From Dudresnaya verticillata (taxonomy: Eukaryota): DNA of 64,000 bases. The notes under the pieces were generated by a model that saw only the letters and a program-made list of their open reading frames with translations, was not told the DNA's origin and searched no databases. This document shows, in pieces, positions 4,116 to 45,206 of the stretch. The position numbers and the translations under genes were made by a program. Position 1 is the stretch's first letter. Each line of letters starts with the position of its first letter. The stretch spans positions 3,472,001 through 3,536,000 of the forward strand of contig OZ374558.1 of assembly GCA_977862235.1 (NCBI GenBank), given 5' to 3'.

Positions 4116-7100
4116 CTAGTGACTTTCTAGTTTCTGGAGTAGTGTGATTGCGGCTCGTTGAGCAAAATCCTCGTTCGACTCTTCGCGGTCATTCCGAATA
4201 CCAACAAACGAGCTTAAACGCCCGACCAAGTCAGCAATTTTCGTTGATGGCGATTGACTCTGTCGTTCGTATTCGAAAAACCCTCTCCTCCTGAAAAGAT
4301 CATTATTCTCTCCATGGATAACATCCATCGCCTTCTGACACTCTTCGACCGAGAGTTTGTAGAACAACGGGAAAATCAACGGAGGTTTCTCGCCTCTTCC
4401 AACCGCCTCATCTATCCGTTTGAAGAATTCTTCCAACTCTAGCATAGGCCACTTGCGAGCCAGGAACTCTGGTGACAGTATGAATATTGCAGCTCTGCTC
4501 CCTCGAATTGCAGCCATAATTTGGTCCTTATTCGTCTTTGTGGATACCTCGAGGCTTTTCTCATCTAAGAAACAACTGACCTTTGTGCCCATTGCATTCA
4601 TTACCGGCACGGCGAGGCACCCCTTCTCGCTCCCTGCGTGTCTGATAAATACATCGAAAGGTCTTGCAGCTAGTCGCACGTCAACAGGACAGGGGCCTGA
4701 GCCAGCACTTGCACCTTTGAGGATGTGCGGCTTCAATCGCTTGAAAGTCCAAAGCTGCTCGCAAACGCAAGTACCATCCGCTAGATCCAGTGGCTGGCAC
4801 TGCGTACTTGTTACCCAATTCCGACGGATACTCAACCGCACGCTACTGGAACTTCCACACCCCCCGCGCAATTCCTTAGGGCAGTCGGTGATCAGATAAT
4901 CTTTCCAGCTTACATTGCTCCTATGCAACGGCCCCTTCAAAAAACTTTCCATGCCCCGCAAACACTGGTGCGCAACCTGCAGCGCCTCAGCGGCATCCGC
5001 CCTTATAGTCCAGTCGATCCATCTCTTTTCTGGTATAAAGCGAACCACAACTCTGCATGCTCCCTCAAGGGTCAGGATGACGGCATCTTGACGAAGCTCG
5101 GGCGGTTTTGTCCGCTCTCTTCCAATGGTTCGGTGAAGGTACGCGATCAGTGACCCTGTCAGACTTGGCGGAATGGTATCAACAAACTCTGTTCTTAAAA
5201 TTATTTCACTCTCTCCCTCCTTTGTGTCACACGAGAACCCTTCCCAACCCTTTGGCAGCAGTGAAGGTATCCCGATTAGCTCGTTCTGTTCACCGTCCGC
5301 TCCTTCCACAGCCTGAAGGCGCATGAGGATGTCAAATTGACAAAGAATGTCAAGCATGACTTTTCGGACAGCCGATCGGTATTTACACCACAGTACCTCC
5401 AGTCCTTCACGGGGTATCAACCCATTCCGATAACCGTCTGCTTCATGCTGTCCCAGAGTCTGTAAAGTCCTTTCAAACTCTTTCGCTTCTTCTTCACCCA
5501 GTCTTTCTCGCATAAACTCAGCCGGGCCCGTGACCTGTCGAATAAAGTCCAGAATAACTGTTGGATCTGGGAACACGAACCATCCCTCGCCCGTCTGCAC
5601 TTCTACGATATGGCCCTGCTGACTCTGGAATTGGACGCATTTCTCAACGTCGGCTTCTCTCTCCTCCTTGTCACTAGAGAATCCGGGAAGTCTGGCACCA
5701 TGGCTCTGGACTTCTGTCATTACCAGAAAGACTTTTTGGCTTTCAGTGGCGTGCGACAAAATGGCTTCCCTGAGGGCAGCCCACCGAACTGGAACCTCTT
5801 CCCTTCCGTCAAGAATGTCTTCACTTGCTTCCTTGATAAACTTCTCTAGTTCCACAACGCCTGACCCGGCACGGTCTTGTTCAGCACTGCTGTTCTTGTT
5901 CTCGATGGCAACCCACCGACACTTGCATTTGTTAACATCACCCTTCTCACGTACCCAGTCATCGTAGACAGCCCTTCCGAGATGCTTTCGCAGTTTTTGT
6001 CGCAGCTGCTGAAACAAGTCTTCAGGGCTTTCAACTTCTGCCTTCCTGGTTCCCACCAGGATCACCCAAACATTTTTCGGGGTTTGCGAAGATGCATGTG
6101 CCATTTGCATCCAGTTGCATAGTTCTAACACTTCGTCCTCTTGGGTGACTTCTGACGCAAACCTTTTCAGATCTACCACGAAAACAAAAATGGAAGCGCG
6201 GCGGATGAAGATTGCGGGAACACTGAGGTACTCTGCCTGACCCCCAAGGTCCCAGCATTGCACCAACGCAGCTCGATTATCCACAGGAAATGAGGAACTC
6301 ATGAGCCCTTGCCGTGCTGCTTCCCAAATGGGAGACGCTTGGGAGTTTATAGACTGCGAAGCAGCAATGCTGGGCGGAGCTGGTGGTTGTTGAGCAGTGG
6401 TATGGCTGCTTGCCAATGTGTCTCCACTCTGGGGAACGGTCCTCTCGGTCGGAGGTCCACTCTGGGGAACGGTCCTCTTGGTCGGAGGAGCTCGGTTGGG
6501 CCAAGTGGGGAGTTTAAGGCGGAATCTTGCGGTGGATTTTTCACTCGGCCGCGATGATGCATCAGTTGCCGTGGGCAGCTGGAACAATGTAGCTCTTGAC
6601 ATGAGGGCATGCAAGGCCTCACTGTTGAAGGCGAGCTGGTTGACAATGTCATCGTCCAACTTGGGGCCGCCGGGGACGACAAGAGTGCGACTCAGCGACA
6701 CAAAGTGTGTCGGCTGGTGGGTGGCAACGAAGGGCATGGAGCGCAGGCTCCTTACCGTGCTCGTCTTGCCGCGTGCCGCACCGCCGAGAACAAGAAGAAA
6801 GCACTGCCGTGGCTTTGCTGTGGCGGTCTTGAGGGTGTTTTCAACAAGTGTGCTGGTGTCACCGATATGGTCGAGAAGGTATTGCGACCGGCTGCCGAAG
6901 ACTTTAAGCTCAAGAGGCGTTACCTGTTGATGCGCTGCTTGTTGATGCAGTTGGGCTGCTGTTTGCTCATCGCTAGCAACACCGACATCTCCGCGGCCAA
7001 GCAATGTGGCGAGCTCATAGAGTGCGATGCGGGTGCGATGGAGTTCGATTGAGCGTTGGAAGAGGCTCTTCGCGCGCGGCGGATCGCGCGCGTCTCCGAT

Positions 7101-7806
7101 ATGATTGGACAAAAGCGCTTGGCCCAACCAAACCATATAAATTGGGGCTTCCTCGTGACCGCTGTCGCAGGCGCGTTGGAGCAGTTCGACGCCGCGCGGA
7201 ACGTCTCGCGGAACATCGATTTCGCCGCTCAGCAGCAAATCGCCCAAAACGGCCATTGCGACGACATTTTCGCCCTCCGCGATGGCGCGGTCGAACAGCG
7301 CAGCGGCGCGCGGAGCGTCTTGTTCTTTAATAAAGGTCTCTCTCTCTCTCTTTGGCGACGCCGTCGCCATTTGCGAGGAGATTGCCCAAATTGATCATTG
7401 CGTTCACTTTCGCAAACTCTGCAACGGCTTGTTCGTACAGCGCTGCCGCGCGCTTTGTGTCTTTGACAAAATGGTGCCATCCTTCAGAGAGATTCCATCC
7501 GAGATTGTACAGCGACACCCCGCGCGGATCTCGCGCGTTGGCGCGCTCGACCAGCTCCGCGGCGCGGCGCTCGTCCTTGGGCACTCCCGCGGCACCTTCC
7601 TTCAGCAACAGTGCAAGGCCATGCCGCGCTTCGTCATGGTCGCCCTCATCAATCGCTCGCTCGAGCAAGGCGACGGCTTACAAAGGTAGAACAGGCCCTC
7701 CATCTGAAGCGTCCCAGTACGCAAAGGCGAGTGCAACCATGTCGTCGACGTCGGCATTGTCGTCGATAGCTTGGCGAAGGGCACGGCGCTGCGGTGTGGC
7801 CTCCAT
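4116..7806 (-). pseudogene. Sel1-ROC-COR-TIR gene copy 1 (type A C-terminus), disrupted
   Basis: Motifs: P-loop GGAARGKTS, CWDLGGQ, VPVRW, TIR FDVFIRHAG...WPMLELEE. Lesions: CAA>TAA stop at 7678-7680 in repeat 1 and a 31-bp frameshifting insertion at 7320-7350. ATG homologous to the other copies at 7806. Confidence 0.9.
7320..7350 (+). mobile_element. 31-bp insertion resembling the extreme 3' tail of a (TC)n-tailed non-LTR element
   Basis: ttgttctttaataaaggtctctctctctctc is absent from the paralogous site gcgtctttggc (19490-19500). Flanked by tctt/tctt. ataaaggtc matches the tail at 21647-21674. Confidence 0.7.
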
Positions 7807-10655: not shown

Positions 10656-10689
10656 ACTGCATTTTACCAAAGTGTCCAGCTCCATTATC

Positions 10690-13149: not shown

Positions 13150-14290
13150 TTGTCACCCTGTCATGTGCTCATTATGACGGCGCCAGAAAACTATTACACC
13201 GGCACTTTAATCACTCAACCCTGTTCGTATTCGAAGCAACTGTGAACAATGTCGTGGCAGAGCTGTGCGACTCTCATGCATGCGATTTTAGACAAGTCTC
13301 CGAAGGGAGGTCCGTCGAACATCGTCGGTATATCTGCCCGGTCTAACAACATCTCGAACACAAATTGGAATTGGCTTCGGTGCTGAAATGGACCGCGACC
13401 AGAGAATAGCTTTATCATCATGTCTAGACTCCTTCGTGAAGGAAACCATGGGCGAATATATTATGTACCCATTGCGCCGATACTCCTGAAAGTTTGGAGA
13501 GAGGAAACACGTGCTTGAGAACGAACAAAGTGTTCAAAATATTTGTCAACACTTGTTCACATACTTTATCCGGACACTTGTTCACATACTTTATCCGGAC
13601 AAGACTGGCGGAGACGAAACAAGAAACAGAGCCTCACTCTTCAGATCTCTTGTACTCGATCATAGTCATCAGCAAGGGAGACATGACGTTGGACACCTCC
13701 CTGGTCGTCGAATTTGCTCTCTCCAGATACGTTTCAACTGACCAGGTCTTATCCTAGGCTGTTTACGAGACTTGCAGAAACTCTAATGTTGAATACTTGA
13801 CAGGGACTGAAGTTTCTACCCGCTTTAGGGACCAGCTGTTTAACCGCCCTTTATCTAGACGGAACGTTTGAGAGCCTCCGTACCTGAACAGGGTATGTAA
13901 CTGCAACAATCAAGCAGTCCGCAAGACCGGTAATATTACGCAATGGCGGAACCAAGATCCCAGAGGGGGCATTGGTGATGAGTCTTCAAACCTGGGCAAA
14001 CCTGGACCCCAAAATATGGCGCGATCCGTTGGGATTTGGTCCGGAACGGTGGGTCTACAGAACTTCTCGTAGAGAGGGTGACAAAGTCTGGCCTGGAACT
14101 TATGTTCCGTTTGGTAGTAGGTCTCGTGCTTGCGCCGGTAGGTTTCTTGCCAAGCACGACTAAGCTCTAATCCCCGCCGAATTGCATCGCAGTTTTATTT
14201 TCATGCTAGCTTCCGAGAAGAGCGAAGGAGTGGGAGTGAAGGCTTTTGTCGAGGTTGCAAAATCACCCTCTGTGAAGGGAGGGGGATTAA
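13150..14290 (+). pseudogene. Cytochrome P450 pseudogene, copy 1
   Basis: DPKIWRDPLGFGPERW (PERF-like) and PFGSRSRACAGRFLA (heme-Cys motif). In-frame stops and frameshifts. Confidence 0.8.
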
Positions 14291-16239
14291 AAAACGCTAA
14301 ACAAGCGCGTTGGACTTCTGCCAGAACACAATACAGGAAACGCTATTTCTTTACGGCGTTAGAATACATGTGAATATTTGCCATGTCGTTTCTGTGCTTG
14401 TTTCAGGATGGGGAGTACTGATGAGAGCTCCTCACCTCTGGAGAGACAAGTGCCACTTCCGTGAGCACAATAACTACCTCTTCTAATAATCGACCAGAAG
14501 GAACGTTTTCTGTTTGTCCGAACTCACAAGTAGATTACACACACGTTGTCTCCGAGAGGACCTGCGATAGATAAACTGTGGTTTAGTTTCTCGAAAGGAG
14601 GGGAACGCACAACGTACCTTGTGGGCGTAGAAAAGATGTATAAGACAAGAGCCCAACTTTTATGCTGTATACTAAGTGTTGTGAATCGCAACTACTATTT
14701 TTGATAATCACAACTCGTATCAAATGAATCGCAACTACTATTTTTGTTAACCACAACCCGTATCAATAGAACAGAATGTCATTTCGAGGAACGAAGAGGA
14801 CCATGTAGGAGGAGACGGAAGCAGCGAGAGCTCCCAGGGTGAACGGTTACGTCTGCCACCCGTCGGAACGTTCCAGCAAATTCATGAGCTCCGTTGCGGT
14901 TTGGTACATAGCCGCACACAGCCGCCACCCACACTGATACACCCACTCACCGATCCATGCGTGCCGCCACTCGTCCCTTCGAGCTGCTAACAGCATATAT
15001 GACGGGATTTTGCGTCTCAGGAGACGAGAAACTGTCTAAACATCTCACGTGGAAGTATCTTTCAAACTCACTGGGACGAGGTCGTCGCCCTCGAAGCGAA
15101 TTATGTGTTCCAGACCGTACGCATCGGCAGTCTGGAGACCAAAAGCATTAAAGAAAGTGTGGCGAATGCGATGGCCATTGCCCGTCTCGCGCATGCGAGC
15201 GACCATGGTCTCACCACCGGCCTGTCCAAACAGTTTATAGGCTCTGCCTTGCTGTTCACACTTGTTCGCCCTGGAAGCTGAAGTGAGGGCCGTCAAAGCC
15301 AAAAATGTCTGGATTCTTCGAGGCGAAAGCCATGAAGAAGGCCCGGATGCCGATGCTCTTAAAGTCGCATTCGTAGTGGAGCACGGCGTCAATTTGCAAG
15401 GGGACAATCTGCGTACTGATTCAGCAGGAGAAGCCACACGGGTGACAGCCAGCGCAGGGGTCCGTGAGGCATCGCGCTTTCGGCTGGTCGCGGCACGCGT
15501 TTTCCGCGGCGCGGCGTTCGGTGAAAGTTGCCAGCCGGGTGAAGGCACGCTGTGAAGTGCTCCAGCAGCTACTAGTGTGTCGGGTGCGGGCGGTCCCCCC
15601 ACAGCAAATATACTGGGACAAGGAGGGAAAAGAAACAAACGATAGGGGGTGCCGTCCATCTTCCGTGTGGCGGTGGTCGTGGGTGCTGGTTGATGTAAAA
15701 AGGTGAGTGCGAAGCGTGGTCGGTTGAAAGTGGTACATACGGGCTGCAGCAAGGACGAGATTCGTGTTCCGTTTTGCTGTTTGTCGACGGGGAGATCTTT
15801 TCGGAAGGCAGTACGGCCATTAACAATAATGGTTTAACGCGGAAACAATAACAAGAGCGTTTTGTAAGCATGTTCAAGCCATCTTCTGACTCCGCCTGGG
15901 ATCTATGTATAGCCTGCACTTTGGTACAATCTCAAATGTTCAACAACCAGCTTTTTAAACATAGACAGGACACCGAACTGAGCTTCGATGTCAATAGACA
16001 AGGACGAAATAGAAATCAGACACACTACCGGTAGTAAAGCAAGCAACAACCTGGCAGTAATGGCACACACCCGCGACATTTCCACGGCCTTGTTCTTCCA
16101 CGGTCGCCATATTCTGTTTCTCTGTACAGAAAGCGCATACCTAATCACACTCGACTCGTTCTACCGGCCAGATCTTGATCGCACAGGATTTTAATAGTCT
16201 TAACTCGCAAACTCGCGAGGTACAAGATGTTTATTACTA

Positions 16240-19200
16240 TTAACTTGCAAACTCGCGAGAGAACTTTTTTGCTGCTCTTGTTGCAAACTGAGTATCGGTC
16301 TCTCCACGGACATCGTTCCGAACACCGATATATCCTGTCACTTTCGCAAGTGTCTCCATTACCTCCGTCACTGGAACCTTCTTCTGGCGTTCGTGGTCGA
16401 AAAAGTGATTATCTTCAAATACACGCCGAAACCGTTCGTCATACGGAAGCTGCTTGTTCTTGCAGTCTTCCACCTGCAGTTGGTAGAAAAGCGGGAACAG
16501 TACAGGTGACTGTGGTCTCTGCTTTCGCTCGAGAAATTCAGACAGCTCTACCATCGGCCACTTGCGAGCCACAAACGACGGCGAAAGAATGAAAGCGGCA
16601 GCCTTACTGCCGCGAATTGCCGCTCGAATTTGCTCTTCGTTTGTACGTTCCGAAACCTTCAAACTCTCTTCATCCAAAAAACACCGCAATCCCATTGCTT
16701 TCAATGCATTCCGTAGCGGGTAGGCAACAGATATCTTTTCCGGGCCTGCGTGGCTAATAAAGACATCATACGGAGTTACTGAGTCTTGTAGTTCAAAATG
16801 ATCGTGGCTTGATCCGTCAGACACACCCTCAAGAATATGTAACTTCAGTTCTCCATAGTTCCACAGTTGATTGCAATAGCATTTTCCTTCTGCCTCATCG
16901 AGTGCCTGACATTCTTCAGTCGAAACCCATGTCTGAGGTATTGACAACAACACACTTTTAGAGCCACCGCAACCCCCCTGGATGCTCGAAGGGCAATCAG
17001 TAACTAGAAAATGATTCCGAGCTGCGTTGCTTCCGTGCGGAGGTCTTGTCAAAAAATCTTCCATAGCTTTCAAACATTCTTGAGCCACCTTCATTGCTGA
17101 GACGGCATCGCACCTGCTCGTCCACACAATCCATCTTTTCTTAGGAACGAAGCAAACAACAACGCGGCAAGTCCCCTTCAGAGAAAGAATTACAGCATCT
17201 TGGCGAAGTTCCGGTGGCTTTGTTCGCTCTCCTCCGATAGTGCGATGAAGGAATGCAACAAAGTAGCCCTCCAAGCCAGGGGGAATGGCATCGTCAAAGA
17301 TGGTTCTCAAAACAATTTCGCACTCTCCTTCTTTCGTAGGGCACTGGAATCCCTCCCAACCTTTGGGAAGCAACGACGGAATCCCGACTAGCTCCTTCCG
17401 CTCATCACCCTCCGTCTCTGTAGAGTGCAAACGCATTAGAATGCCAAACCGGCACAGAATGTCAAGCATCACATCTCGAACAGGAGGTAGGTATTTACAC
17501 CACAATTCATCCAGTCCCTTTCGTGGGATCAACCCGTTCTCGTAACTTTCTGCTTCATGCTGTCCTAGAGTTTGCAAACTCCTTTCAAACTCTTTCGCTT
17601 CTTCTTCACCCAGTCTTTCTCGCATAAACTCAGCCGGGCCCGTGACCTGTCGAATAAAGTCCAGAATAACTGTTGGATCTGGGAACACGTACCATCCCTC
17701 GGCCGTCTGAACTTCGGCGATATGCCCTTGTTGGCCCTGGAATTGGACGCATTTCTCAACGTCTGCTTCTCTCTCCTCCTTGTCACTAGAGAATCCGGGA
17801 AGTCTGGCAGCATGGCTATGGACTTCTCCCATTGCCAAAAAGACTTCTTGGCTTTCAGTGGCGTGCGACAAAATGGCTTCCCTGAGGGCAGCCCACCGAA
17901 CTGGAACCTCTTCCCTTCCGTCAAGAATGTCTTCACTCGCTTCCTTGATAAACTTCTCTAGTTCCACAACGCCTGACCCGGCACGGTCTTGTTCAGCACT
18001 GCTGTTCTTGTTCTCGATGGCAACCCACCGACACTTGCATTTGTCGACATCACCCTTCTCCCGTACCCAGTCATCGTAGACAGCCCTTCCGAGATGCTTT
18101 CGCAGTTTTTGTCGCAGCTGCTGAAACAAGTCTTCAGGGCTTTCAACTTCTGCCTTCCTGGTTCCCACCAGGATCACCCAAACGTTTTTCGGGGTTTGCG
18201 AAGACGCATGTGCCATTTGCATCCAGTTGCATAGTTCTAACACTTCGTCCTCTAACACTTCGTCCTCTTGGGTGACTTCTGACGCAAACCTTTTCAGATC
18301 TACCACGAAAACAAAAATGGAAGCGCGGCGGATGAAGATTGCGGGAACACTGAGGTACTCTGCCTGACCCCCAAGGTCCCAGCATTGCACCAACGCAGCT
18401 CGATTATCCGCAGGGAATGGATGACTCATGAGCCCTTGCCGTGCTGCTTCCCAAATGGGAGACGCTCGGGAGTTGATAGACTGTGAAGCAGCAATACTGG
18501 GCGGAGCTGGTGGTTGTTGAGCAGTGGTATGGCTGCTTGCCAATGTGTCTCCACTCTGGGGAACGGTCCTCTTGGTCGGAGGAGCTCGCTTGAGCCAAGT
18601 GGGGAGTTTAAGGTGGAACCTTGCGGTGGATTTTTCACTCGGCCGCGATGATGCATCAGTTGCAGTTGGGAGAAACGCCGATCCAGCTCGAAAGGAGCCG
18701 GCATCGGATGCACTTGCTGTAGATGACGTTGGTCGTTCCGTTGGCGTGGGTAACACTGGAATACCTGACCGTGACATGAGGGCATGGAAGGCCTCGCTGT
18801 TGAAAGCGAGTTGGTCGACAATGTCATCGTCCAACTTGGGGCCGTCCGGGACGACAACAGTGCGACTCAGCGACACAAAGTGTGTCGGCTGGTGGGTGGC
18901 AACGAAGGGCATGGAGCGCAGGCTCCTTACCGTGCTTGTCTTGCCGCGTGCCGCACCGCCAAGAACAAGAAGAAAGCACTGCCGTGGCTTTGCTGTGGCG
19001 GTCTTGAGGGTGTTGTCAACAAGTGTGCTGGTGTCACCGATGCGGTTGACAAGGTATTGCAACCGGCTGCTGAAGACTTCAAGCTCAAGAGGCGTTTGCT
19101 GTTGATGCGCTGCTTGTTGATGCAGTTGGGCTGCTGCGCGCTCATCGCGAGCAACACCGACATCTCCGCGGCCAAGCAATGTGGCGAGCTCATAGAGTGC

Positions 19201-19953
19201 GACGCGGGTGCGATGGAGTTCGATTGAGCGTTGGAAGAGGCTCTTCGCGCGCGGCGGATCGCGCGCGTCTCCGATATGATTGGACAAAAGCGCTTGGCCC
19301 AACCAAACCATATACATTGGGGCCCTCTCGTGACCGCTGTCGCAGGCGCGTTGGAGCAGTTCGACGCCGCGCGGAACGTCTCGCGGAACATCGATTCCGC
19401 CGCTCAGCAGCAATTCGCCCAAATTGGCCATTGCGTTGACATTTTCGCCATCCGCGATGGCGCGGTCGAACAGCGCAGCGGCGCGCGGAGCGTCTTTGGC
19501 GACGCCGTCGCCGTCTGCGAGGAGAACGCCCAAATTGACCATTGCCGTCACATTCGCAAACTCTGCTGCAACGGCTCGTTCGTACAGCGCTGCCGCGCGC
19601 TTTGTGTCTTTGACAAAATGGCGCCGTCCGATATCGAGACGCACTCCGAGATTCCACAGCGACACCCCGCGCGGATCTCGCGCGTTGGCGCGCTCGACCA
19701 GCTCCGCGGCGCGGCGCTCGTCCTTGGGCACTCCCGCGGCCCCTTCCTTTAGCAACAGTGCAAGGCCATGCCGCGCTTGGATATGGTCGCCCTCATCAAT
19801 CGCTCGCTCGAGCAAGGCGACGGCTTGCAAAGGTAGAACAGGCCCTCCATCTGAAGCGTCCCAGCACACAAAGGCGAGTGCAACCATGTCGTCGACATCG
19901 GCATTGTCGTCGATAGCTTGGCGAAGGGCGCGGCGCTGCGGTGTGGCATCCAT
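16240..19953 (-). CDS. Sel1-ROC-COR-TIR protein copy 2 (type B), intact, 1237 aa
   Basis: Single intronless ORF from ATG 19953. About 7 Sel1-like repeats (AMxNLGxLLxxGxGVxKDxxRAxxLxxRA), G1 GGAARGKTS, G3 WDLGGQ, ILVGT, COR-like VPVRW and FPDPTVILDF, TIR YDVFISHAG / CFLDEESL / AIRGS / ILSPSF / WPMVEL / LFPLFY. Confidence 0.93.
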   Translation of the reverse strand: MDATPQRRALRQAIDDNADVDDMVALAFVCWDASDGGPVLPLQAVALLERAIDEGDHIQARHGLALLLKEGAAGVPKDERRAAELVERANARDPRGVSLWNLGVRLDIGRRHFVKDTKRAAALYERAVAAEFANVTAMVNLGVLLADGDGVAKDAPRAAALFDRAIADGENVNAMANLGELLLSGGIDVPRDVPRGVELLQRACDSGHERAPMYMVWLGQALLSNHIGDARDPPRAKSLFQRSIELHRTRVALYELATLLGRGDVGVARDERAAAQLHQQAAHQQQTPLELEVFSSRLQYLVNRIGDTSTLVDNTLKTATAKPRQCFLLVLGGAARGKTSTVRSLRSMPFVATHQPTHFVSLSRTVVVPDGPKLDDDIVDQLAFNSEAFHALMSRSGIPVLPTPTERPTSSTASASDAGSFRAGSAFLPTATDASSRPSEKSTARFHLKLPTWLKRAPPTKRTVPQSGDTLASSHTTAQQPPAPPSIAASQSINSRASPIWEAARQGLMSHPFPADNRAALVQCWDLGGQAEYLSVPAIFIRRASIFVFVVDLKRFASEVTQEDEVLEDEVLELCNWMQMAHASSQTPKNVWVILVGTRKAEVESPEDLFQQLRQKLRKHLGRAVYDDWVREKGDVDKCKCRWVAIENKNSSAEQDRAGSGVVELEKFIKEASEDILDGREEVPVRWAALREAILSHATESQEVFLAMGEVHSHAARLPGFSSDKEEREADVEKCVQFQGQQGHIAEVQTAEGWYVFPDPTVILDFIRQVTGPAEFMRERLGEEEAKEFERSLQTLGQHEAESYENGLIPRKGLDELWCKYLPPVRDVMLDILCRFGILMRLHSTETEGDERKELVGIPSLLPKGWEGFQCPTKEGECEIVLRTIFDDAIPPGLEGYFVAFLHRTIGGERTKPPELRQDAVILSLKGTCRVVVCFVPKKRWIVWTSRCDAVSAMKVAQECLKAMEDFLTRPPHGSNAARNHFLVTDCPSSIQGGCGGSKSVLLSIPQTWVSTEECQALDEAEGKCYCNQLWNYGELKLHILEGVSDGSSHDHFELQDSVTPYDVFISHAGPEKISVAYPLRNALKAMGLRCFLDEESLKVSERTNEEQIRAAIRGSKAAAFILSPSFVARKWPMVELSEFLERKQRPQSPVLFPLFYQLQVEDCKNKQLPYDERFRRVFEDNHFFDHERQKKVPVTEVMETLAKVTGYIGVRNDVRGETDTQFATRAAKKFSREFAS

Positions 19954-24073: not shown

Positions 24074-27054
24074 CTAGTGACTTTCTAGTTTCTGGAGTAG
24101 TGTGATTGCGGCTCGTTGAGCAAAATCCTCGTTCGACTCTTCGCGGTCATTCCGAATACCAACAAACGAGCTTAAACGCCCGGCCAAGTCAGCAATTTTC
24201 GTTGATGGCGATTGACTCTGTCGTTCGTATTCGAAAAACCCTCTCCTCCTGAAAAGATCGCTATTCTCTCCATGGAAAACATCCATCGCCTTCTGACACT
24301 CTTCGACCGAGAGTTTGTAGAACAACGGGAAAATCAACGGAGGTTTCTCGCCTCTTCCTACCGCCTCATCCGTCCGCTTGAAGAATTCTTCCAACTCTAG
24401 CATAGGCCACTTGCGAGCCAGGAACTCTGGTGACAGTATGAATATTGCAGCTCTGCTCCCTCGAATTGCAGCCATAATTTGGTCCTTATTCGTCTTTGTG
24501 GATACCTCGAGGCTTTTCTCATCTAAGAAACAACTGACCTTTGTGCCCATTGCATTCATTACCGGCACGGCGAGGCACCCCTTCTCGCTCCCTGCGTGGC
24601 TGATAAATACATCGAAAGGTCTTGCAGCTAGTCGCACGTCAACAGGACGCGGACCTGAGCCCGCACTTGCTCCTTTGAGGATGTGCAGCTTCAATCGCTT
24701 GAAAGTCCAAAGCTGCTCGCAAACGCAAGTGCCTTCTGCTCGGTCCAGTAGCTGGCACTGCGTACTTGTTACCCAACTCCGACGGATACCCAACTGCACG
24801 CTGCTGGAACTTCCACACCCCCCGCGCAATTCCTTAGGGCAGTCGGTGATCAGATAGTCTTTCCAGCTTGCATTGGTCCCATGCAGTGGTCCCTTCAAAA
24901 AACTTTCCATGCCCCGCAAACACTGGTGCGCAACCTGCACTGCTTCATCGGCATCCGCCCTTATAGTCCAGTCGATCCATCTCTTTTCTGGAATAAAGCG
25001 AACCACGACTCTGCATGCTCCCGCAAGGGCCAGGATGACGGCATCTTGACGAAGCTCGGGCGGTTTTGTCCGCTCTCTTCCAATGGTTCGGTGAAGGTAC
25101 GCGATCAGTGACCCTGTCAGACTTGGCGGAATGGTATCAACAAACTCTGTTCGCAAAATTAGTTCACTCTCTCCGTTCTTTGTGTCACACGAGAACCCTT
25201 CCCAACCCTTTGGCAGCAGTGAAGGTATCCCGATTAGCTCGTTCTGTTCACCGTCCGCTCCTTCCACAGCCTGAAGGCGCATGATGATGTCAAATTGACA
25301 AAGAATGTCAAGCATGACTTTTCGGACAGCTGGTGGGTATTTACACCACAATTCATCCAGTCCCTTTCGTGGGATCAGTCCTTTCTCGTAACTTTGTGCT
25401 TCATGCTGTCCCAGAGTCTGTAAACGCCTTTCAAACTCTTTCGCTTCTTCTTCACCCAGTCTTTCTCGCATAAACTCAGCCGGGCCCGTGACCTGCCGAA
25501 TAAAGTCCAGAATAACTGTTGGATCTGGGAACACGAACCATCCCTCGCCCGTCTGCACTTCTACGATATGGCCATGCTGACTCTGGAATTGGACGCATTT
25601 CTCAACGTCGGCTTCTCTCTCCTCCTTGTCACTAGAGAATCCGGGAAGTCTTGCAGCATGGCTCTGGACTTCTGCCATTGCCAGAAAGACTTTTTGGCTT
25701 TCAGTGGCGTCTGACAAAATGGTTTCCCTGAGGGCAGCCCACCGAACTGGAACCTCTTCCCTTCCGTCAAGAATGTCTTCACTTGCTTCCTTGATAAACT
25801 TCTCTAGTTCCACAACGCCTGACCCAGCACGGTCTTGTTCAGCACTGCTGTTCTTGTTCTCGATGGCAACCCACCGACACTTGAATTTGTCGACATCACC
25901 CTTCTCACGTACCCAGTCATCGTAGATAGCCCTTCCGAGATGCTTTCGCAGTTTTTGTCGCAGCTGCTGAAATAAGTCTTCAGGGCTTCCAACTTCTGCC
26001 TTCCTGATTCCCACTATTATCACCCAAACAATGTTCGGGTTTTGCGAAGACGCATGTGCCATTTGCATCCAGTTGCACAATTCTAACACTTCGTCCTCTT
26101 CGGTGACTTCACAAGCAAACCTTTTCAGGTCTACCACGAAAACAAAAATGGAAGCGCGGCGGATGAAGATTGCGGGAACACTGAGGTACTCTGCCTGACC
26201 CCCAAGGTCCCAGCATTGCACCAACGCAGCTCGATTATCTGCAGGGAATGCGTTACTCATGAGCCCTTGTCGTGCTGCTTCCAAAACGGGAGACGACTGG
26301 GAGTTGAAAGACTGCGAAGCAGCCCTAATGGACGGCGCGCTGGTTGTTGAACAGGGGAATGGCTACTTGGCAAGGCGTCTCCACTCTGGGGGACGATGCT
26401 CTTGGTCGGAGGAGCTCACTTAAGCCAACTTGGAAGTTTAAGGCGGAACCTTGCGGTGGGCTTTGGAGTCGGTCGAGATGATGTATGTCTTGCAGTTGGG
26501 ACAAAAGCGGGTCCAGCTCGAGACGAGCCGCCATTGGATGTACTTGCCGTAGATGACGTTGGTAGTTCCGTTGCCGTGGGTACCTCAGGAACATCTGACC
26601 GTGACATGAGGGCATGGAAGGCCTCGCTGTTGAAGGCGAGCTGGTCGACAATGTCATCGTCCAACTTGGGGCCGTCCGGGACGACAAGAGTGCGACTCAG
26701 CGACACAAAGTGTGTCGGCTGGTGGGTGGCAACGAAGGGCATGGAGCGCAGGCTCCTTACCGTGCTTGTCTTGCCGCGTGCCGCACCGCCGAGAACAAGA
26801 AGAAAGCACTGCCGTGGCTTTGCTGTGGCGGTCTTGAGGGTGTTTTCGACAAGTGTGCTAGTGTCACCGATATGGTTGAGAATGCATTGCGACCGGCTTC
26901 CGAAGACTTTAAGCTCCAGAGGCGTTACCTGTTGATGTGTTGCTTGTTGATGCAGTTGGGCTGCTGCGTGCTCATTGCGATCAACACCGATATCTCCGTA
27001 GGCAAGCAATGTGGCGAGCTCATAGAGTGCGATTCGCGTGCGATGGAGTTCGAT
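24074..27054 (-). pseudogene. Sel1-ROC-COR-TIR copy 3 (type A), 5'-truncated
   Basis: Homology to the other copies stops at 27054 (end of Sel1 repeat 6). CGA>TGA stop at 26416-26418 and a frameshift near 26338. COR-TIR part remains open (24074-26284). Confidence 0.9.
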
Positions 27055-29026
27055 ATTGCAGTCCTACCTCTGCCCTCTTCAACTTGGTGTAGGCGTTTCA
27101 GGGGGTGCAGAAGCGATCATACATGCTTCACGCTATTTAACGACTCGACTACGTGACTTAGACATGGTACTCGTGAGCGTGGATGCTGCGAATGCATTTA
27201 ATGCCATCGAGCGAAGCTTGATACTCTCAGAAGTGGTACTGCATTGCTCGGGTCTGGCAAAGTGGATCCATTTTATATACGGCCGTGGCTCCGTACTACA
27301 CTTTGGATCATTCCTTGTCCATAGTCGATCTGGCACTCATCAGGGTGATCCACTTAGCCCTCTATTGTTTGCATTGGTCCTGCAACCTCTCTTGTGCCTC
27401 CTTCGTACCCGTTTCTCTATGCCTTTGCAAGTATTCTTCGCCGATGATATGGAACTCTCCTCCTGCCTCGCAGTATGCTCGGTTCAGTTCTTTCTTTCCT
27501 CGCAACAGAAGGATCTAAGATTGGTTTCCATCTCAATCTTTCCAAAACCACTGCTTGGTGGCGGCGCCGTCCCTCTCGAATCCCTGTCCCTGCTAACGGG
27601 TGCCATGTTACTATATCTCACGATGATGCTCTAACTGTGCTCGGCTCTCCTATCGGACACTCTGCTGCTTGCCAAGCCCAGTTTCACTTCAGACGGGTCA
27701 GGGAAACACGTCTATTGGAAGCGCTTCCAACTCTAAATGACCCACAAATGGCCTATCATCTCTTGCGCTATTGCTCCGGTGCTTGCAAGCTGATCTATAC
27801 CCTACGAACTGCCCCGCCGCATCTAACATTTCCTGAGGCCGATCTATTCGACCAAGGGCAGCGAGGGGCATTCGAATGTATTCATCACTCGCTTCCCGAC
27901 GATTCCTGGACTTGTGCGACACCCCCGCTTGAATATGGGGGGCTTGGCCTCACCTCTACTACCACGCTTGTCGAGCTTTCCTATATCAGTTCTGTAATGG
28001 GGGTTTGGGATTTGTTCACTACTTTGATCTCGCCTGCCCTTTCGATGTTCTCTCGCACCGACTCACGGCCGCGGAGTTTGGCTCGAACCTGTAATGCCCT
28101 GTGTACTCAGTTCGGATTATCTAGCGATTATCACTTTTCGACTCTCCTCTCTCGCACCCGAAAGCGCGGTTACATCCCCCACTTGCAAGAAGAACTCTCC
28201 GCGAAGGTTCACGCTCGTTTGGTGGATAATTACTGGCCCTCCATCCGTTCGACTGAGAGAGAAGATCGTGTGAAAAGGGCCCGACTTCTCTCCTGTGGTA
28301 GTTTGGAATCTCGAATGGCCTTTACCGCATTCCCCGATCCACGCCGAGGCACCTCTGTGTCACCTGCTATATGGGCTACCATGATCGACTTGCGTTTGGG
28401 CGCACCTGTATTTGCGCCAGATCTCCATTGTTCTGCGTGTCTATCCGTTTCTGGTCGCGTGGTTTCCCTTGACCGTTTGGGGTATCATGCTTCGACATGT
28501 CCCTGTGCCCATGGGTCCACTCGTCGTCACAATTCTATTAGGGATCTCCTTTTTTCTCGTCTCCGTCAACCGTCTATCGGGCTTTCTGTCACGAGAGAGC
28601 AGTCCTTTCATCTACAGGACGATCTTCGACGATTGGACTTGGTGTTGGATGATCCCGCCTTTTCTGATTCATGCATTGGTTATGACCTTACTATTGTGAC
28701 TCCCTCTACTGCTCGTGCTGTATCCAAGGCATCTGAAATTCCTGCAGGGGCCGCCCAAGTCGCTGAACGGGACAAGCATCGCAAGTATCGCACTGCTTGT
28801 GCAGCACATTGTATTACGTTTCAGCCGCTGGGATTCGACATTCACGGAGGCATTGGCCCCGAATGCCGTAGCGCACTTCAAAAGCTCGCTTCTTTCCTGG
28901 CCACGCGCCGGGGAACAAATCCTACTACTGCATACCATTCGTTAGTTTCACCACTGGTTTCCCGCATTCTCCAGCTCACCGCCCTCGCCGTGAATCGTCG
29001 ACGTCCCGTTAGTCCAGACCTTCCAG
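27055..29026 (+). mobile_element. CRE-like non-LTR retrotransposon (RT + CCHC + RLE), truncated at both ends and frameshifted
   Basis: QLGVG, VDAANAFN, GTHQGDPLSPLLF, FFADD, LNLSKT, LGSPIG, GGLGL, CSAC...HASTC, RRHNSIRD, RRLDL...YDLTI, ERDKHRKY. Frameshift immediately after FADD (gatgatATgga, near 27449). Confidence 0.92.
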
Positions 29027-29058
29027 CCTATTATCTATCGGAGTGCATCCAACAGTAA

Positions 29059-31450: not shown

Positions 31451-31489
31451 CACGCTGCATTTTACCAAAGTGTCCAGCTCTATTATCCC

Positions 31490-34330: not shown

Positions 34331-37300
34331 AAAAACGCTAAACAAGCGCGTTGGACTTCTGCCAGAACACAATACAGGAAACGCTATTTCTTTACGGCGT
34401 TAGAATACATGTGAATATTTGCCATGTCGTTTCTGTGCTTGTTTCAGGATGGGGAGTACTGATGAGAGCTCCTCACCTCTGGAGAGACAAGTGCCACTTC
34501 CGTGAGCACAATAACTACCTCTTCTAATAATCGACCAGAAGGAACGTTTTCTGTTTGTCCGAACTCACAAGTAGATTACACACACGTTGTCTCCGAGAGG
34601 ACCTGCGATAGATAAACTGTGGTTTAGTTTCTCGAAAGGAGGGGAACGCACAACGTACCTTGTGGGCGTAGAAAAGATGTATAAGACAAGAGCCCAACTT
34701 TTATGCTGTATACTAAGTGTTGTGAATCGCAACTACTATTTTTGATAATCACAACTCGTATCAAATGAATCGCAACTACTATTTTTGTTAACCACAACCC
34801 GTATCAATAGAACAGAATGTCATTTCGAGGAACGAAGAGGACCATGTAGGAGGAGACGGAAGCAGCGAGAGCTCCCAGGGTGAACGGTTACGTCTGCCAC
34901 CCGTCGGAACGTTCCAGCAAATTCATGAGCTCCGTTGCGGTTTGGTACATAGCCGCACACAGCCGCCACCCACACTGATACACCCACTCACCGATCCATG
35001 CGTGCCGCCACTCGTCCCTTCGAGCTGCTAACAGCATATATGACGGGATTTTGCGTCTCAGGAGACGAGAAACTGTCTAAACATCTCACGTGGAAGTATC
35101 TTTCAAACTCACTGGGACGAGGTCGTCGCCCTCGAAGCGAATTATGTGTTCCAGACCGTACGCATCGGCAGTCTGGAGACCAAAAGCATTAAAGAAAGTG
35201 TGGCGAATGCGATGGCCATTGCCCGTCTCGCGCATGCGAGCGACCATGGTCTCACCACCGGCCTGTCCAAACAGTTTATAGGCTCTGCCTTGCTGTTCAC
35301 ACTTGTTCGCCCTGGAAGCTGAAGTGAGGGCCGTCAAAGCCAAAAATGTCTGGATTCTTCGAGGCGAAAGCCATGAAGAAGGCCCGGATGCCGATGCTCT
35401 TAAAGTCGCATTCGTAGTGGAGCACGGCGTCAATTTGCAAGGGGACAATCTGCGTACTGATTCAGCAGGAGAAGCCACACGGGTGACAGCCAGCGCAGGG
35501 GTCCGTGAGGCATCGCGCTTTCGGCTGGTCGCGGCACGCGTTTTCCGCGGCGCGGCGTTCGGTGAAAGTTGCCAGCCGGGTGAAGGCACGCTGTGAAGTG
35601 CTCCAGCAGCTACTAGTGTGTCGGGTGCGGGCGGTCCCCCCACAGCAAATATACTGGGACAAGGAGGGAAAAGAAACAAACGATAGGGGGTGCCGTCCAT
35701 CTTCCGTGTGGCGGTGGTCGTGGGTGCTGGTTGATGTAAAAAGGTGAGTGCGAAGCGTGGTCGGTTGAAAGTGGTACATACGGGCTGCAGCAAGGACGAG
35801 ATTCGTGTTCCGTTTTGCTGTTTGTCGACGGGGAGATCTTTTCGGAAGGCAGTACGGCCATTAACAATAATGGTTTAACGCGGAAACAATAACAAGAGCG
35901 TTTTGTAAGCATGTTCAAGCCATCTTCTGACTCCGCCTGGGATCTATGTATAGCCTGCACTTTGGTACAATCTCAAATGTTCAACAACCAGCTTTTTAAA
36001 CATAGACAGGACACCGAACTGAGCTTCGATGTCAATAGACAAGGACGAAATAGAAATCAGACACACTACCGGTAGTAAAGCAAGCAACAACCTGGCAGTA
36101 ATGGCACACACCCGCGACATTTCCACGGCCTTGTTCTTCCACGGTCGCCATATTCTGTTTCTCTGTACAGAAAGCGCATACCTAATCACACTCGACTCGT
36201 TCTACCGGCCAGATCTTGATCGCACAGGATTTTAATAGTCTTAACTCGCAAACTCGCGAGGTACAAGATGTTTATTACTATTAACTTGCAAACTCGCGAG
36301 AGAACTTTTTTGCTGCTCTTGTTGCAAACTGAGTATCGGTCTCTCCACGGACATCGTTCCGAACACCGATATATCCTGTCACTTTCGCAAGTGTCTCCAT
36401 TACCTCCGTCACTGGAACCTTCTTCTGCCGTTCGTGGTCGAAAAAGTGATTATCTTCAAATACACGCCGAAACCGTTCGTCATACGGAAGCTGCTTGTTC
36501 TTGCAGTCTTCCACCTGCAGTTGGTAGAAAAGCGGGAACAGTACAGGTGACTGTGGTCTCTGCTTTCGCTCGAGAAATTCAGACAGCTCTACCATCGGCC
36601 ACTTGCGAGCCACAAACGACGGCGAAAGAATGAAAGCGGCAGCCTTACTGCCGCGAATTGCCGCTCGAATTTGCTCTTCGTTTGTACGTTCCGAAACCTT
36701 CAAACTCTCTTCATCCAAAAAACACCGCAATCCCATTGCTTTCAATGCATTCCGTAGCGGGTAGGCAACAGATATCTTTTCCGGGCCTGCGTGGCTAATA
36801 AAGACATCATACGGAGTTACTGAGTCTTGTAGTTCAAAATGATCGTGGCTTGATCCGTCAGACACACCCTCAAGAATATGTAACTTCAGTTCTCCATAGT
36901 TCCACAGTTGATTGCAATAGCATTTTCCTTCTGCCTCATCGAGTGCCTGACATTCTTCAGTCGAAACCCATGTCTGAGGTATTGACAACAACACACTTTT
37001 AGAGCCACCGCAACCCCCCTGGATGCTCGAAGGGCAATCAGTAACTAGAAAATGATTCCGAGCTGCGTTGCTTCCGTGCGGAGGTCTTGTCAAAAAATCT
37101 TCCATAGCTTTCAAACATTCTTGAGCCACCTTCATTGCTGAGACGGCATCGCACCTGCTCGTCCACACAATCCATCTTTTCTTAGGAACGAAGCAAACAA
37201 CAACGCGGCAAGTCCCCTTCAGAGAAAGAATTACAGCATCTTGGCGAAGTTCCGGTGGCTTTGTTCGCTCTCCTCCGATAGTGCGATGAAGGAATGCAAC

Positions 37301-40134
37301 AAAGTAGCCCTCCAAGCCAGGGGGAATGGCATCGTCAAAGATGGTTCTCAAAACAATTTCGCACTCTCCTTCTTTCGTAGGGCACTGGAATCCCTCCCAA
37401 CCTTTGGGAAGCAACGACGGAATCCCGACTAGCTCCTTCCGCTCATCACCCTCCGTCTCTGTAGAGTGCAAACGCATTAGAATGCCAAACCGGCACAGAA
37501 TGTCAAGCATCACATCTCGAACAGGAGGTAGGTATTTACACCACAATTCATCCAGTCCCTTTCGTGGGATCAACCCGTTCTCGTAACTTTCTGCTTCATG
37601 CTGTCCTAGAGTTTGCAAACTCCTTTCAAACTCTTTCGCTTCTTCTTCACCCAGTCTTTCTCGCATAAACTCAGCCGGGCCCGTGACCTGTCGAATAAAG
37701 TCCAGAATAACTGTTGGATCTGGGAACACGTACCATCCCTCGGCCGTCTGAACTTCGGCGATATGCCCTTGTTGGCCCTGGAATTGGACGCATTTCTCAA
37801 CGTCTGCTTCTCTCTCCTCCTTGTCACTAGAGAATCCGGGAAGTCTGGCAGCATGGCTATGGACTTCTCCCATTGCCAAAAAGACTTCTTGGCTTTCAGT
37901 GGCGTGCGACAAAATGGCTTCCCTGAGGGCAGCCCACCGAACTGGAACCTCTTCCCTTCCGTCAAGAATGTCTTCACTCGCTTCCTTGATAAACTTCTCT
38001 AGTTCCACAACGCCTGACCCGGCACGGTCTTGTTCAGCACTGCTGTTCTTGTTCTCGATGGCAACCCACCGACACTTGCATTTGTCGACATCACCCTTCT
38101 CCCGTACCCAGTCATCGTAGACAGCCCTTCCGAGATGCTTTCGCAGTTTTTGTCGCAGCTGCTGAAACAAGTCTTCAGGGCTTTCAACTTCTGCCTTCCT
38201 GGTTCCCACCAGGATCACCCAAACGTTTTTCGGGGTTTGCGAAGACGCATGTGCCATTTGCATCCAGTTGCATAGTTCTAACACTTCGTCCTCTAACACT
38301 TCGTCCTCTTGGGTGACTTCTGACGCAAACCTTTTCAGATCTACCACGAAAACAAAAATGGAAGCGCGGCGGATGAAGATTGCGGGAACACTGAGGTACT
38401 CTGCCTGACCCCCAAGGTCCCAGCATTGCACCAACGCAGCTCGATTATCCGCAGGGAATGGATGACTCATGAGCCCTTGCCGTGCTGCTTCCCAAATGGG
38501 AGACGCTCGGGAGTTGATAGACTGTGAAGCAGCAATACTGGGCGGAGCTGGTGGTTGTTGAGCAGTGGTATGGCTGCTTGCCAATGTGTCTCCACTCTGG
38601 GGAACGGTCCTCTTGGTCGGAGGAGCTCGCTTGAGCCAAGTGGGGAGTTTAAGGTGGAACCTTGCGGTGGATTTTTCACTCGGCCGCGATGATGCATCAG
38701 TTGCAGTTGGGAGAAACGCCGATCCAGCTCGAAAGGAGCCGGCATCGGATGCACTTGCTGTAGATGACGTTGGTCGTTCCGTTGGCGTGGGTAACACTGG
38801 AATACCTGACCGTGACATGAGGGCATGGAAGGCCTCGCTGTTGAAAGCGAGTTGGTCGACAATGTCATCGTCCAACTTGGGGCCGTCCGGGACGACAACA
38901 GTGCGACTCAGCGACACAAAGTGTGTCGGCTGGTGGGTGGCAACGAAGGGCATGGAGCGCAGGCTCCTTACCGTGCTTGTCTTGCCGCGTGCCGCACCGC
39001 CAAGAACAAGAAGAAAGCACTGCCGTGGCTTTGCTGTGGCGGTCTTGAGGGTGTTGTCAACAAGTGTGCTGGTGTCACCGATGCGGTTGACAAGGTATTG
39101 CAACCGGCTGCTGAAGACTTCAAGCTCAAGAGGCGTTTGCTGTTGATGCGCTGCTTGTTGATGCAGTTGGGCTGCTGCGCGCTCATCGCGAGCAACACCG
39201 ACATCTCCGCGGCCAAGCAATGTGGCGAGCTCATAGAGTGCGACGCGGGTGCGATGGAGTTCGATTGAGCGTTGGAAGAGGCTCTTCGCGCGCGGCGGAT
39301 CGCGCGCGTCTCCGATATGATTGGACAAAAGCGCTTGGCCCAACAAAACCATACACATTGGGGCCCTCTCGTGACCGCTGTCGCAGGCGCGTTGGAGCAG
39401 TTCGACGCCGCGCGGAACGTCTCGCGGAACATCGATTCCGCCGCTCAGCAGCATTTCGCCCAAATTGGACATTGCGGCGAAATCTTCGCCCTCCGCGATG
39501 GCGCGGTCGTACAGCGCAGCGGCGCGCGGAGCGTCTTTGACGACGCCGTCGCCGTGTTCGAGGAGAAAGCCCAAATTGACCATTGCGTCCACGTCCGCAA
39601 ACTCTGCAACGGCTCGTTCGTGCAGCGCTGCCGCGCGCTTTGTGTCTTTGACAAAATGGCCCAATCCGATATGGAGACGCCCTCCGAGATTGTACAGCGA
39701 CACCCCGCGCGGATCTCGCGCGTTGGCGCGCTCGACCAGCTCCGCGGCGCGGCGCTCGTCCTTGTTGGCACAATGATGTTCAATGTGACACGAACTTATC
39801 ACGGTCAACATGCACCACAACAATGCAGTTTACCTGACAATGACAGAAGTGCAGAAACTCTCCGGCCCTGCTCTTCAGGAGACTCCCCCGGAATTATCAC
39901 CTGGAGAGGACTCTCCTGCCGTGCAAGCAAAGGTTCGAAAATGTAGTAGTAGGACTTTGCTTACCGTATAAAGACCAGCCATAAACAGGGAGTAGCCCAG
40001 ACTGGTTGGCACATCAACACACAAATCTAACAGGTTATGGGGTTCTAGTACGCGCAAGTCTATCTGCGCTTGACGTCCCGTCTATCGTTTCGTAGCAACT
40101 CGTCGTTTCGTTTTTTCGTCAGTCTTCCCACAAC

Positions 40135-40770
40135 ATGGATTCTGAAAGTGGGACAGACCTCTCTCGCTATCGTATTGAGAAGCTTACATCCCAGAACTAC
40201 TACATATGGTCTCGTAAAATCGAGTTAGTACTTCGTGCCAAGGGGCTCTGGGGAATCGTGTCAGGCACCGAGAAGAAACCGGAAGGTGCCTCCGTCGATG
40301 AAGGTGAAAAGTTTCAACGTCGCCATGATGTCGCTCTTACAAACTTACTACTCACTGTGGACGACTCAATTAGCGCCCGTGTTATTGGCTTACGAGACGC
40401 TAAGCAAGTTTGGGACACTCTTGAGTCTATGTTTCAAGTTATTTCGGAGGCATCAATTGATGCCTATCTGACGCAGTACCAGACAGTTACCATGCTACCG
40501 ACGGAGAATATTATGAGCTACGTAAATCGGTTGACTAACCTGGAGCAAAAGTTAACATCAGTTGGACATTCAATATCTGAGCGAGATCGCAAAAGGGCCT
40601 TACTACGAGGACTTAGAGAGGAGTATCATGTTGTGAAGAAAGTAATGTTGATCTCAGGCACAAAGTATGAAGAATGTATATCGCAACTCGTCCTTGAGGA
40701 ATCAATGAGGAAATCAACATTTTGCAAGACGAAGTTAGCACGGCAAATGGAGAAAGTTCTACTGCATTAG
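40135..40770 (+). CDS. gag: Copia Gag N-terminal (UBN2-like) region
   Basis: IEKLTSQNYYIWS...LRAKGLW, AKQVWDTL, LLRGLREEY. Confidence 0.9.
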   Translation: MDSESGTDLSRYRIEKLTSQNYYIWSRKIELVLRAKGLWGIVSGTEKKPEGASVDEGEKFQRRHDVALTNLLLTVDDSISARVIGLRDAKQVWDTLESMFQVISEASIDAYLTQYQTVTMLPTENIMSYVNRLTNLEQKLTSVGHSISERDRKRALLRGLREEYHVVKKVMLISGTKYEECISQLVLEESMRKSTFCKTKLARQMEKVLLH

Positions 40771-44303: not shown

Positions 44304-44936
44304 GTTCGAGGGGGAATGTTGGCACAATGATGTTCAATGTGACACGAACTTATCACGGTCAACATGCACCACAACAATGCAGTTTACCTGACAATGACAG
44401 AAGTGCAGAAACTCTCCGGCCCTGCTCTTCAGGAGACTCCCCCGGAATTATCACCCGGAGAGGACTCTCCTGCCGTGCAAGCAAAGGTTCGAAAATGTAG
44501 TAGTAGGACTTTGCTTACCGTATAAAGACCAGCCATAAACAGGGAGTAGCCCAGACTGGTTGGCACATCAACACACAAATCTAACAGTCCTTGGGCACTC
44601 CCGCGGCCCCTTCCTTTAGCAACAGTGCAAGGCCATGCCGCGCTTCGTCATGGTCGCCCTCATCAATCGCTCGCTCGAGCAAGGCGACGGCTCGCGAAGG
44701 CAGAACGGGCCCTCCATCTGAAGCGTCCCAGTACGCAAATGCGAGTGCAACCATGTCGTCGCCGTCGGCATTGTCGTCGATAGCTTGGCGAAGGGCAAGG
44801 CGCTGCGGTGTGGCATCCATGTCGGCAGGAGCGGGCGGTCGAGCGGGTGGAGGCGGTTGGAGATGGGATGGTTGGGGTGTGTGTGTCGGGAGCGAGTGCG
44901 CCAAGCGCACGGCGCTATTTATGCCGCGATGAAAGT

Positions 44937-45206
44937 TGTTGGCACAATGATGTTCAATGTGACACGAACTTATCACGGTCAACATGCACCACAACAATGC
45001 AGTTTACCTGACAATGACAGAAGTGCAGAAACTCTCCGGCCCTGCTCTTCAGGAGACTCCCCCGGAATTATCACCCGGAGAGGACTCTCCTGCCGTGCAA
45101 GCAAAGGTTCGAAAATGTAGTAGTAGGACTTTGCTTACCGTATAAAGACCAGCCATAAACAGGGAGTAGCCCAGACTGGTTGGCACATCAACACACAAAT
45201 CTAACA
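44937..45206 (+). mobile_element. Solo LTR of the same Copia family
   Basis: 270 bp, matching the 3' LTR at the one variable site. Has its own TSD AAAGT (44932-44936 / 45207-45211). Empty sites at about 20065 and 57876. Confidence 0.97.

Follow-up and report, generated by a model that had tools for sequence, protein, structure and literature searches.

The window, by which we mean the whole 64,000-nt stretch of Dudresnaya verticillata DNA that was analysed, contains five copies of one gene, all on the minus strand (Table 1). The locus is organised as a tandem unit of ∼20 kb, with 3701–19731 corresponding to 23702–39771 and a partial third unit beginning at ∼48 kb. Copies 2 and 5 are intact, and the other three (copies 1, 3 and 4) are broken. 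In addition to its stop codon, copy 1 carries a frameshifting 31-nt insertion at 7322–7352, in the loop of repeat 4, whilst a 4.8-kb Copia element interrupts copy 4 after codon 78. Between the copies there are also remnants of other family members, in the form of degraded Roc and COR sequence at 10712–11683, 31498–31932 and 48241–48664. No tRNA genes were found in the window.

Table 1. Positions of the five gene copies, the domains of copy 2 and the retroelements in the window
Feature	Position	Strand	Remarks
Copy 1	4116..7806	-	Pseudogene, TIR type A; stop at codon 43
5.09-kb block	14211..19303	.	Identical to 34252-39344 except 16387/36428
Copy 2	16240..19953 (ATG 19953)	-	Intact intronless ORF, 1237 aa, TIR type B
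TIR domain, copy 2	16243..16773	-	Pfam; keeps conserved Glu
COR domain, copy 2	16834..17913 (approximate bounds)	-	Directly after Roc; predicted fold
Roc GTPase, copy 2	17914..18981 (approximate bounds)	-	P-loop at residue 332, G3 at 525
Hypervariable tract, copy 2	19282..19665	-	Codons 97-224, Sel1 repeats 3-6
Helix A of repeats 3-6, copy 2	Residues 97-108, 135-147, 172-184, 211-224		
Copy 3	24074..27054	-	TIR type A; lacks start and repeats 1-6; one stop, one frameshift
Probable non-LTR retrotransposon remnant	27055..29058	+	Occupies expected place of copy 3 5' end, adjoins copy 3
Copy 4, 3' piece	36281..39757	-	Codon 79 onward; hypervariable tract ∼39323-39703
Copia LTR retrotransposon	39763..44586	+	Within loop of Sel1 repeat 2, copy 4
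Copia LTRs, 270 bp each	39763-40032, 44317-44586		Differ by one base
Copia gag	40135-40770	+	
Copia pol	40722-44303	+	
Copy 4, 5' piece	44587..44820	-	Codons 1-78, copy-5-like
Solo LTR of Copia element	44937..45206	+	Identical to 3' LTR; own 5-bp target duplication; upstream of copy 4 start codon
Copy 5	54081..57764	-	Intact single ORF, 1227 aa, TIR type B

Copy 2 is an intronless Roco gene, in which seven Sel1-like repeats are followed by Roc, COR and TIR domains. A Pfam search of the long ORFs returned Sel1 (E 2e-25), Roc (E 2e-7) and TIR_2 (E 2e-14). Both intact genes are single open frames across all of the repeats, and the repeat number is the same in copies 1, 2, 4 and 5. Each Sel1 repeat is a helix-loop-helix of 36–38 amino acids with the SLR consensus. 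The predicted model of copy 2 residues 1–301 is a confident Sel1 solenoid (mean pLDDT 88) with the repeats arranged as a superhelix, and its fold matches 6OK3, 4BWR and 1OUV. Copy 5 differs from the other copies by deletions of two and five residues and by many changes in and around repeat 6. Across its repeats 6–7 (56890–57150) both deletions are in-frame and many of the replacements are private, with pN 0.12 and pS 0.04 against copy 2 over codons 221–320; the repeat seems either to be decaying or to have been remodelled, although the gene is otherwise intact.

The model of the remainder of copy 2 (residues 318–1237, pLDDT 79) has Roc-COR fold matches to 3DPU (Chlorobium Roco, E 1.6e-13), 6HLU and LRRK1, with E values of 6e-14 to 3e-13, and also resembles plant TIR domains. 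A profile search matched the Roc domain to that of LRRK2, and the P-loop and G3 motifs are conserved in relatives, whilst we take the G4 motif to be altered relative to the consensus. Between the P-loop and G3 there is an insertion of ∼95 residues (18450–18700), Ser/Pro/Thr-rich and of low complexity, which is predicted to be disordered and differs in length between copies. The Pfam match to COR-A was weak in copy 3 (E 0.0095) and clearer in relatives. From domain membership, Roc is predicted to be a GTP-binding and -hydrolysing domain and COR a dimerisation domain. The conserved TIR Glu, present in all of the relatives aligned, lines up with the conserved Glu of bacterial AbTIR-type NADases, and is presumably the catalytic Glu of NADase TIRs. 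Pfam gave no match to an NB-ARC or NACHT domain, the nucleotide switch here being Roc-COR, and the gene product would work like an NLR at most; it is not a member of the NLR (STAND) receptors.

The Copia element in copy 4 is flanked by a 5-bp target duplication and, with its nearly identical LTRs, is young. It lies 350 bp from the solo LTR in the same gene (39763–45206), a pairing which suggests either two very recent insertions or strong local targeting. The sequence adjoining copy 3 gave no Pfam match; by eye, we take it to be a probable remnant of a non-LTR retrotransposon from its RT-like and C-terminal motifs. In the copy 1 insertion (7322–7352), a short tail bearing a signal like that for polyadenylation is accompanied by a dinucleotide run and a 4-bp duplication. 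This insertion and that of the Copia element (39758–44591) are in different repeats, yet both interrupt the Sel1 loop at the same Lys-Asp step, which, with two cases, may be chance.

The original prediction was that helix A of the Sel1 repeats is hypervariable, with no silent changes, between otherwise near-identical copies 2 and 4. The two copies differ in this region by 27 substitutions at 19304–19655 and one 3-nt indel at 19563–19565. The substitutions are spread over 21 codons, each of which encodes a different residue in the two copies, in agreement with the ∼21 replacement codons and single codon indel first counted by hand. Likewise, the one silent change noted downstream is indeed the sole difference in the 5.09-kb block, and the residue strings given for repeats 3, 4 and 5 are correct, being from copies 1, 2, 4 and 5. 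The description of the copies as near-identical is right only 3' of the tract: over codons 1–96 pS is 0.067, and there are many differences at 12098–14210. The splitting of copy 4 by the Copia element, the stop and frameshift of copy 1 and the lesions of copy 3 had not been mentioned; two of the four copies compared are now pseudogenes. Since the multi-base codons could hide up to three silent steps, the comparison of copies 2 and 4 is by itself borderline (P 0.025–0.062, depending on kappa). The selection signal comes from all four copies, not from this pair alone.

The positions of the variable codons can be compared with those known to contact ligands in related repeats. In TPR proteins the ligand-contact residues are at positions 2, 5, 6, 9, 12 and 13, with Asn6 binding the peptide backbone (PMC1261162), and in SLR proteins helix 1 forms the concave face (PMC3851747). 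The repeats were anchored on Leu7-Gly8. With this contact set, which is external but was applied after the variable columns had been seen, 21 of the 24 groove codons in repeats 3–6 vary among the four copies, against 19 of the 103 others (P 3e-10), the latter made up of 5/27 other helix-A codons and 14/76 remaining codons. The pattern is also found when copy 5 is left out (15/24 versus 15/103), and with the intact copies 2 and 5 alone (16/24 versus 11/101). Ten of the 15 multi-state columns are in the contact set, and the other five either flank helix A or are position 3 of repeat 6. On a helical wheel the groove set lies opposite the core set (184 versus 13 degrees).

The replacement excess is concentrated at helix-A positions 2, 5, 9, 12 and 13. 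At position 6, Asn is kept in 10 of 12 cases in repeats 3–5, as would be expected of a residue that anchors the backbone next to those that set specificity. There is little variation in repeats 1, 2 and 7. The observation that the scaffold and helix B stay nearly fixed was borne out: 26 of the 52 helix-A residues of repeats 3–6 vary, compared with 7 of 69 in five B helices of the predicted model, all seven being two-state among the four copies. Placed by helix and repeat position, the variable sites concentrate at the TPR ligand-contact positions. There is thus positive selection at the predicted ligand-facing positions of the repeats, surface exposure being judged from repeat position.

The strength of this selection was estimated with codon models run with our own code on four sequences (copies 1, 2, 4 and 5, two of them pseudogenes). 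Over codons 97–220 there are 37 columns with amino-acid variation, 15 of them with at least three residues, and 2 columns with silent variation only. Pairwise pN/pS over these codons is 2.5–4.8 at kappa 1, and single pairs, with silent steps maximised within multi-hit codons, give P values of 0.001–0.10. Counted as minimum steps, independently of topology, the tract has 65 replacement and 8 silent changes (P 0.0022 at kappa 1, 0.0005 at kappa 2); elsewhere the same count gives 6 and 9 (codons 321–395) and 30 and 31 (codons 521–800). Model M2a is preferred over M1a with a 2ΔL of 76–78 on all three topologies, or 49–53 when double-nucleotide changes are allowed, and its positive class has an omega of 31–37 on 21–27% of codons, or of ∼34 on 21–23% without double changes. 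The comparisons of M8 with M7 (2ΔL 78.6), one of the tests named with the original prediction, and of M8 with M8a (2ΔL 78.0) similarly support diversifying selection on the helix-A groove.

When the 24 groove codons were fixed in advance, their omega was 24–37, which differs from 1 with a 2ΔL of 59–84, and their silent rate was not raised. Only 2 of 58 four-fold third positions vary. As a control, the Roc region shows purifying selection (omega 0.22–0.28). Non-groove codons within the tract have an omega of 2.3–4.4, with no purifying signal, and weaker M2a signals were obtained in three of four control regions (2ΔL 7.2 for codons 1–96, 12.9 for 221–320 and 9.5 for 521–800). The omega of ∼34 is inflated as a result of the unusually low silent divergence in the tract; measured against flanking silent rates, the groove omega is ∼8–14.

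The signal could also have a neutral origin, if copies that are dead or under relaxed constraint, together with recombination, hot spots of mutation and multi-nucleotide mutations, mimic selection. The broken state of three of the five copies and their mosaic structure fit such a neutral origin, as does the improvement of the null fits by a double-hit rate, although the signal remains with double hits included. A neutral codon hot-spot class was 8.6 log units worse than M2a, and its groove-fixed version was rejected (2ΔL 17.5–22.6). Neutral simulations were run on block-wise random trees with recombination, in 24 settings of 150–400 runs each. In the 12 settings without extra rate variation the observed counts were matched in no more than 0.75% of runs, whereas with strong rate variation and double hits, the extreme case, they were reached in up to 8% of runs. 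However, no such process predicts a pattern on one face of a helix at externally defined positions (P 3e-10), and the pattern persists in the two intact genes alone. We therefore consider it very unlikely that the signal is neutral.

The history of the copies is not one of simple duplication. Over the 200 bases from 20070 to 19871, copy 4 has 1 difference from copy 5 and 8 from copy 2, and informative sites group it with copy 5 upstream and with copy 2 from ∼19414 onward. Copy 4 is thus a mosaic, copy-5-like at its 5' end, which makes the identical block a product of recent conversion, unequal crossover or assembly collapse. The original framing stands as regards selection, but its contrast between the tract and the identical block is due to recent homogenisation, and not to new mutations that arose after duplication. 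A recent duplication of whole genes, with divergence since then, was rejected. A comparison of copies 1 and 2 gives a pS of 0.02–0.14 from Sel1 to COR-A (the first part of COR) and of 0.74 in COR-B (the rest of COR) and TIR. On these sequence divergences, two old effector ends, one in copies 1 and 3 and the other in copies 2, 4 and 5, share one homogenised sensor-Roc half. The diverged COR-TIR ends lie at 17470–16240 versus 4116–5300 and 24074–25300 (pS ∼0.74).

A single difference in 5.09 kb, inside units that are otherwise several percent apart, might also be expected if the assembly were at fault, either in laying out haplotypes one after another as 20-kb tandem units or in collapsing the block to a consensus. 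The units, however, carry different insertions and flanks, and errors would be neither silent-free nor groove-specific. We give an assembly effect a slim chance. Were the units alleles, the selection signal would stand as allelic hypervariability, and only the inference of conversion would fall.

It could be argued that the variation is written by a template or a targeted enzyme, through adenine mutagenesis of the kind associated with diversity-generating retroelements (DGRs) or through shuffling between repeats. Such a process would account for the 11 of 21 variable groove codons with multi-base changes and a fixed third base, and it fits the presence of adenine among the states in 37 of 61 variable columns and of retroelements nearby. 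On the other hand, 24 of the 61 columns have no A in any copy, none of the 10 four-fold A positions varies, the window contains no further Sel1-like DNA to serve as a template, and the recognised RT is of Copia type. DGR-like mutagenesis was rejected, no template repeat, DGR RT or adenine specificity being found in the window. Repeat-to-repeat shuffling was also rejected: helix-A DNA is 28–64% identical between repeats and codon sets are mostly repeat-specific, so the repeats are not being swapped. Nothing pointing to somatic or templated diversification was seen in the window, and we regard directed diversification as extremely improbable.

Among the ten best database matches that reach Roc-COR-TIR, two are named, both from Chondrus crispus, and one of these has the full Sel1-Roc-TIR arrangement. 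This protein, XP_005712860.1, is 31–34% identical over Roc to TIR and shares the conserved P-loop, the G3 motif and the Glu of TIR. Its architecture has been published under the name ‘TPR-ROCO-TIR (Chondrus crispus)’ (PMC11378527). Of the 1272 residues of the Chondrus relative, 5 differ between the two sequences compared, and on inspection none of these was at a groove position; here, by contrast, there is a five-copy mosaic cluster with a hypervariable groove. Hypervariability is therefore not general to the architecture, and only some family members appear hypervariable. In a quick tree of 20 rows, those with >450 aligned residues, the genes of the window form one clade among Chondrus and other database proteins. 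A metagenome scan gave one distant Sel1 locus (28% identity), which was left out of the comparisons.

A literature search, mostly of papers outside subscription, found no study of selection on red algal Sel1 genes, nor any report of selection on the Chondrus proteins, among titles and the openings of abstracts. In Asparagopsis, Sel1 proteins are listed as potential pathogen receptors (PMC12115072, Table 2). Red algal NB-domain candidates are described in PMC7145615, PMC8307928 and PMC6928737, the available parts of which do not describe a Sel1-Roc-COR-TIR family, and according to one review no canonical plant-type receptors were found in Porphyra (PMC8307928).

Taken together, the most probable explanation is that the tandem Sel1-Roc-COR-TIR genes are intracellular immune sensors, in which a predicted binding groove is diversified by positive selection and recombination homogenises the rest. 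The immune function is suggested by the sequence and by domain analogies. From the behaviour of TPR/SLR, Roco and TIR proteins elsewhere, a mechanism can be proposed. The ligand of repeats 3–6 would be a peptide in extended form, from a variable protein that is foreign (or non-self); Asn6 would hold the peptide backbone, and the variable positions would determine specificity. Ligand binding would change the nucleotide or dimer state of Roc-COR, the switch, and this change would bring TIR domains together. The clustered TIR domains could then cleave NAD+ or make a signal, and thereby trigger either defence or the local death of cells. Point mutations would supply new specificities, which would be at an advantage while rare and would pass from one paralogue to another by conversion, and the copies would undergo birth and death, as in plant NLR clusters.

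It is also conceivable that, as with fungal het genes, individuals that coalesce use these genes to tell self from non-self, and that balancing selection keeps the diversity. The pattern is shared by fungal NLRs with WD, TPR and ANK repeats, which control allorecognition (PMC4986451), and red seaweeds coalesce into chimeras (PMC5325190). The sequence pattern alone would look the same for a self/non-self job as for a pathogen job. Against allorecognition, no gene for a linked partner or a ligand could be recognised within the window, and rapid copy loss fits pathogen-driven turnover at least as well. We would accordingly rank pathogen sensing first and allorecognition, which we think unlikely, second.

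Pathogen sensing by a variable repeat domain would have several parallels. In brown algae, LRR-ROCO and NB-ARC-TPR genes show positive selection on the concave face and form clusters with gene birth and death (PMC3341825, PMC11378527), and share with the present genes a Roc-COR behind a repeat sensor; here, by contrast, the sensor is Sel1 and not LRR, and a C-terminal TIR is present. The exon shuffling of brown algal ROCO genes, with one repeat per exon, has no counterpart, since the cluster genes are intronless and thus have neither one-repeat-per-exon shuffling nor alternative splicing. The copies compared do not differ in the number or order of their repeats. In fungal NLRs, such as the HNWD family of Podospora, few codons per repeat are selected on the binding face and the scaffold is homogenised (PMC4986451), a likeness that extends to WD, TPR and ANK repeats, but the switch here is Roc-COR and not NACHT or NB-ARC. 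Highly similar repeats that evolve in concert and vary in number, as in HNWD, are not found here (28–64% helix-A DNA identity; constant number). As the repeats within a gene are dissimilar, homogenisation here is between genes and not between repeats.

The highly variable TIR-NB-ARC-LRR genes of plants are clustered, with a fast-evolving sensor surface, a TIR output, many pseudogenes and transposon insertions. The present cluster resembles them in its linkage of a variable sensor to TIR, its pseudogenes and its transposon insertions, but has no NB-ARC or LRR, and the domain order is reversed, with the sensor N-terminal and the TIR C-terminal. Highly variable NLRs of plants are the subject of PMC8226289. 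DGRs share the codon-focused variation on a binding surface, and differ in the features already found wanting in the window. Thus, the Sel1/TPR-ROCO-TIR architecture and concave-face selection in other repeat sensors are already known. What appears from the sequence to be new is the use of Sel1, with Roc-COR and a C-terminal TIR, as a hypervariable sensor without exon or repeat shuffling.

For pathogen recognition in red seaweeds, the very strong position-specific signal singles out a candidate receptor family together with its predicted specificity residues. The groove-centred replacement changes likely mark an arms race with a changing target, and make the family a testable candidate for recognition of attackers. 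If so, Sel1 repeats with Roc-COR-TIR would join the list of independent solutions for variable intracellular sensing. A bolder reading, to which we would give an even chance, is that red seaweeds independently built an NLR equivalent by joining a Roco GTPase switch and a TIR enzyme to a Sel1 sensor, and that this cluster is in an active arms race in which groove codons turn over 10–30 times faster than silent sites. By conversion, a single sensor-Roc half, shared and still evolving, would then be grafted onto both of the COR-TIR outputs, which diverged long ago, and a new specificity could be wired to either COR-TIR response.

Two further features of the locus were observed. On the minus strand at 3–1310, running past the window edge, there is a gene whose Cys-rich product has Ephrin_rec_like repeats and what looks like a signal peptide; its best matches are only ∼30% identical. 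Genes of type A and type B take turns along the tandem unit, an order that would be compatible with an arrangement in pairs.
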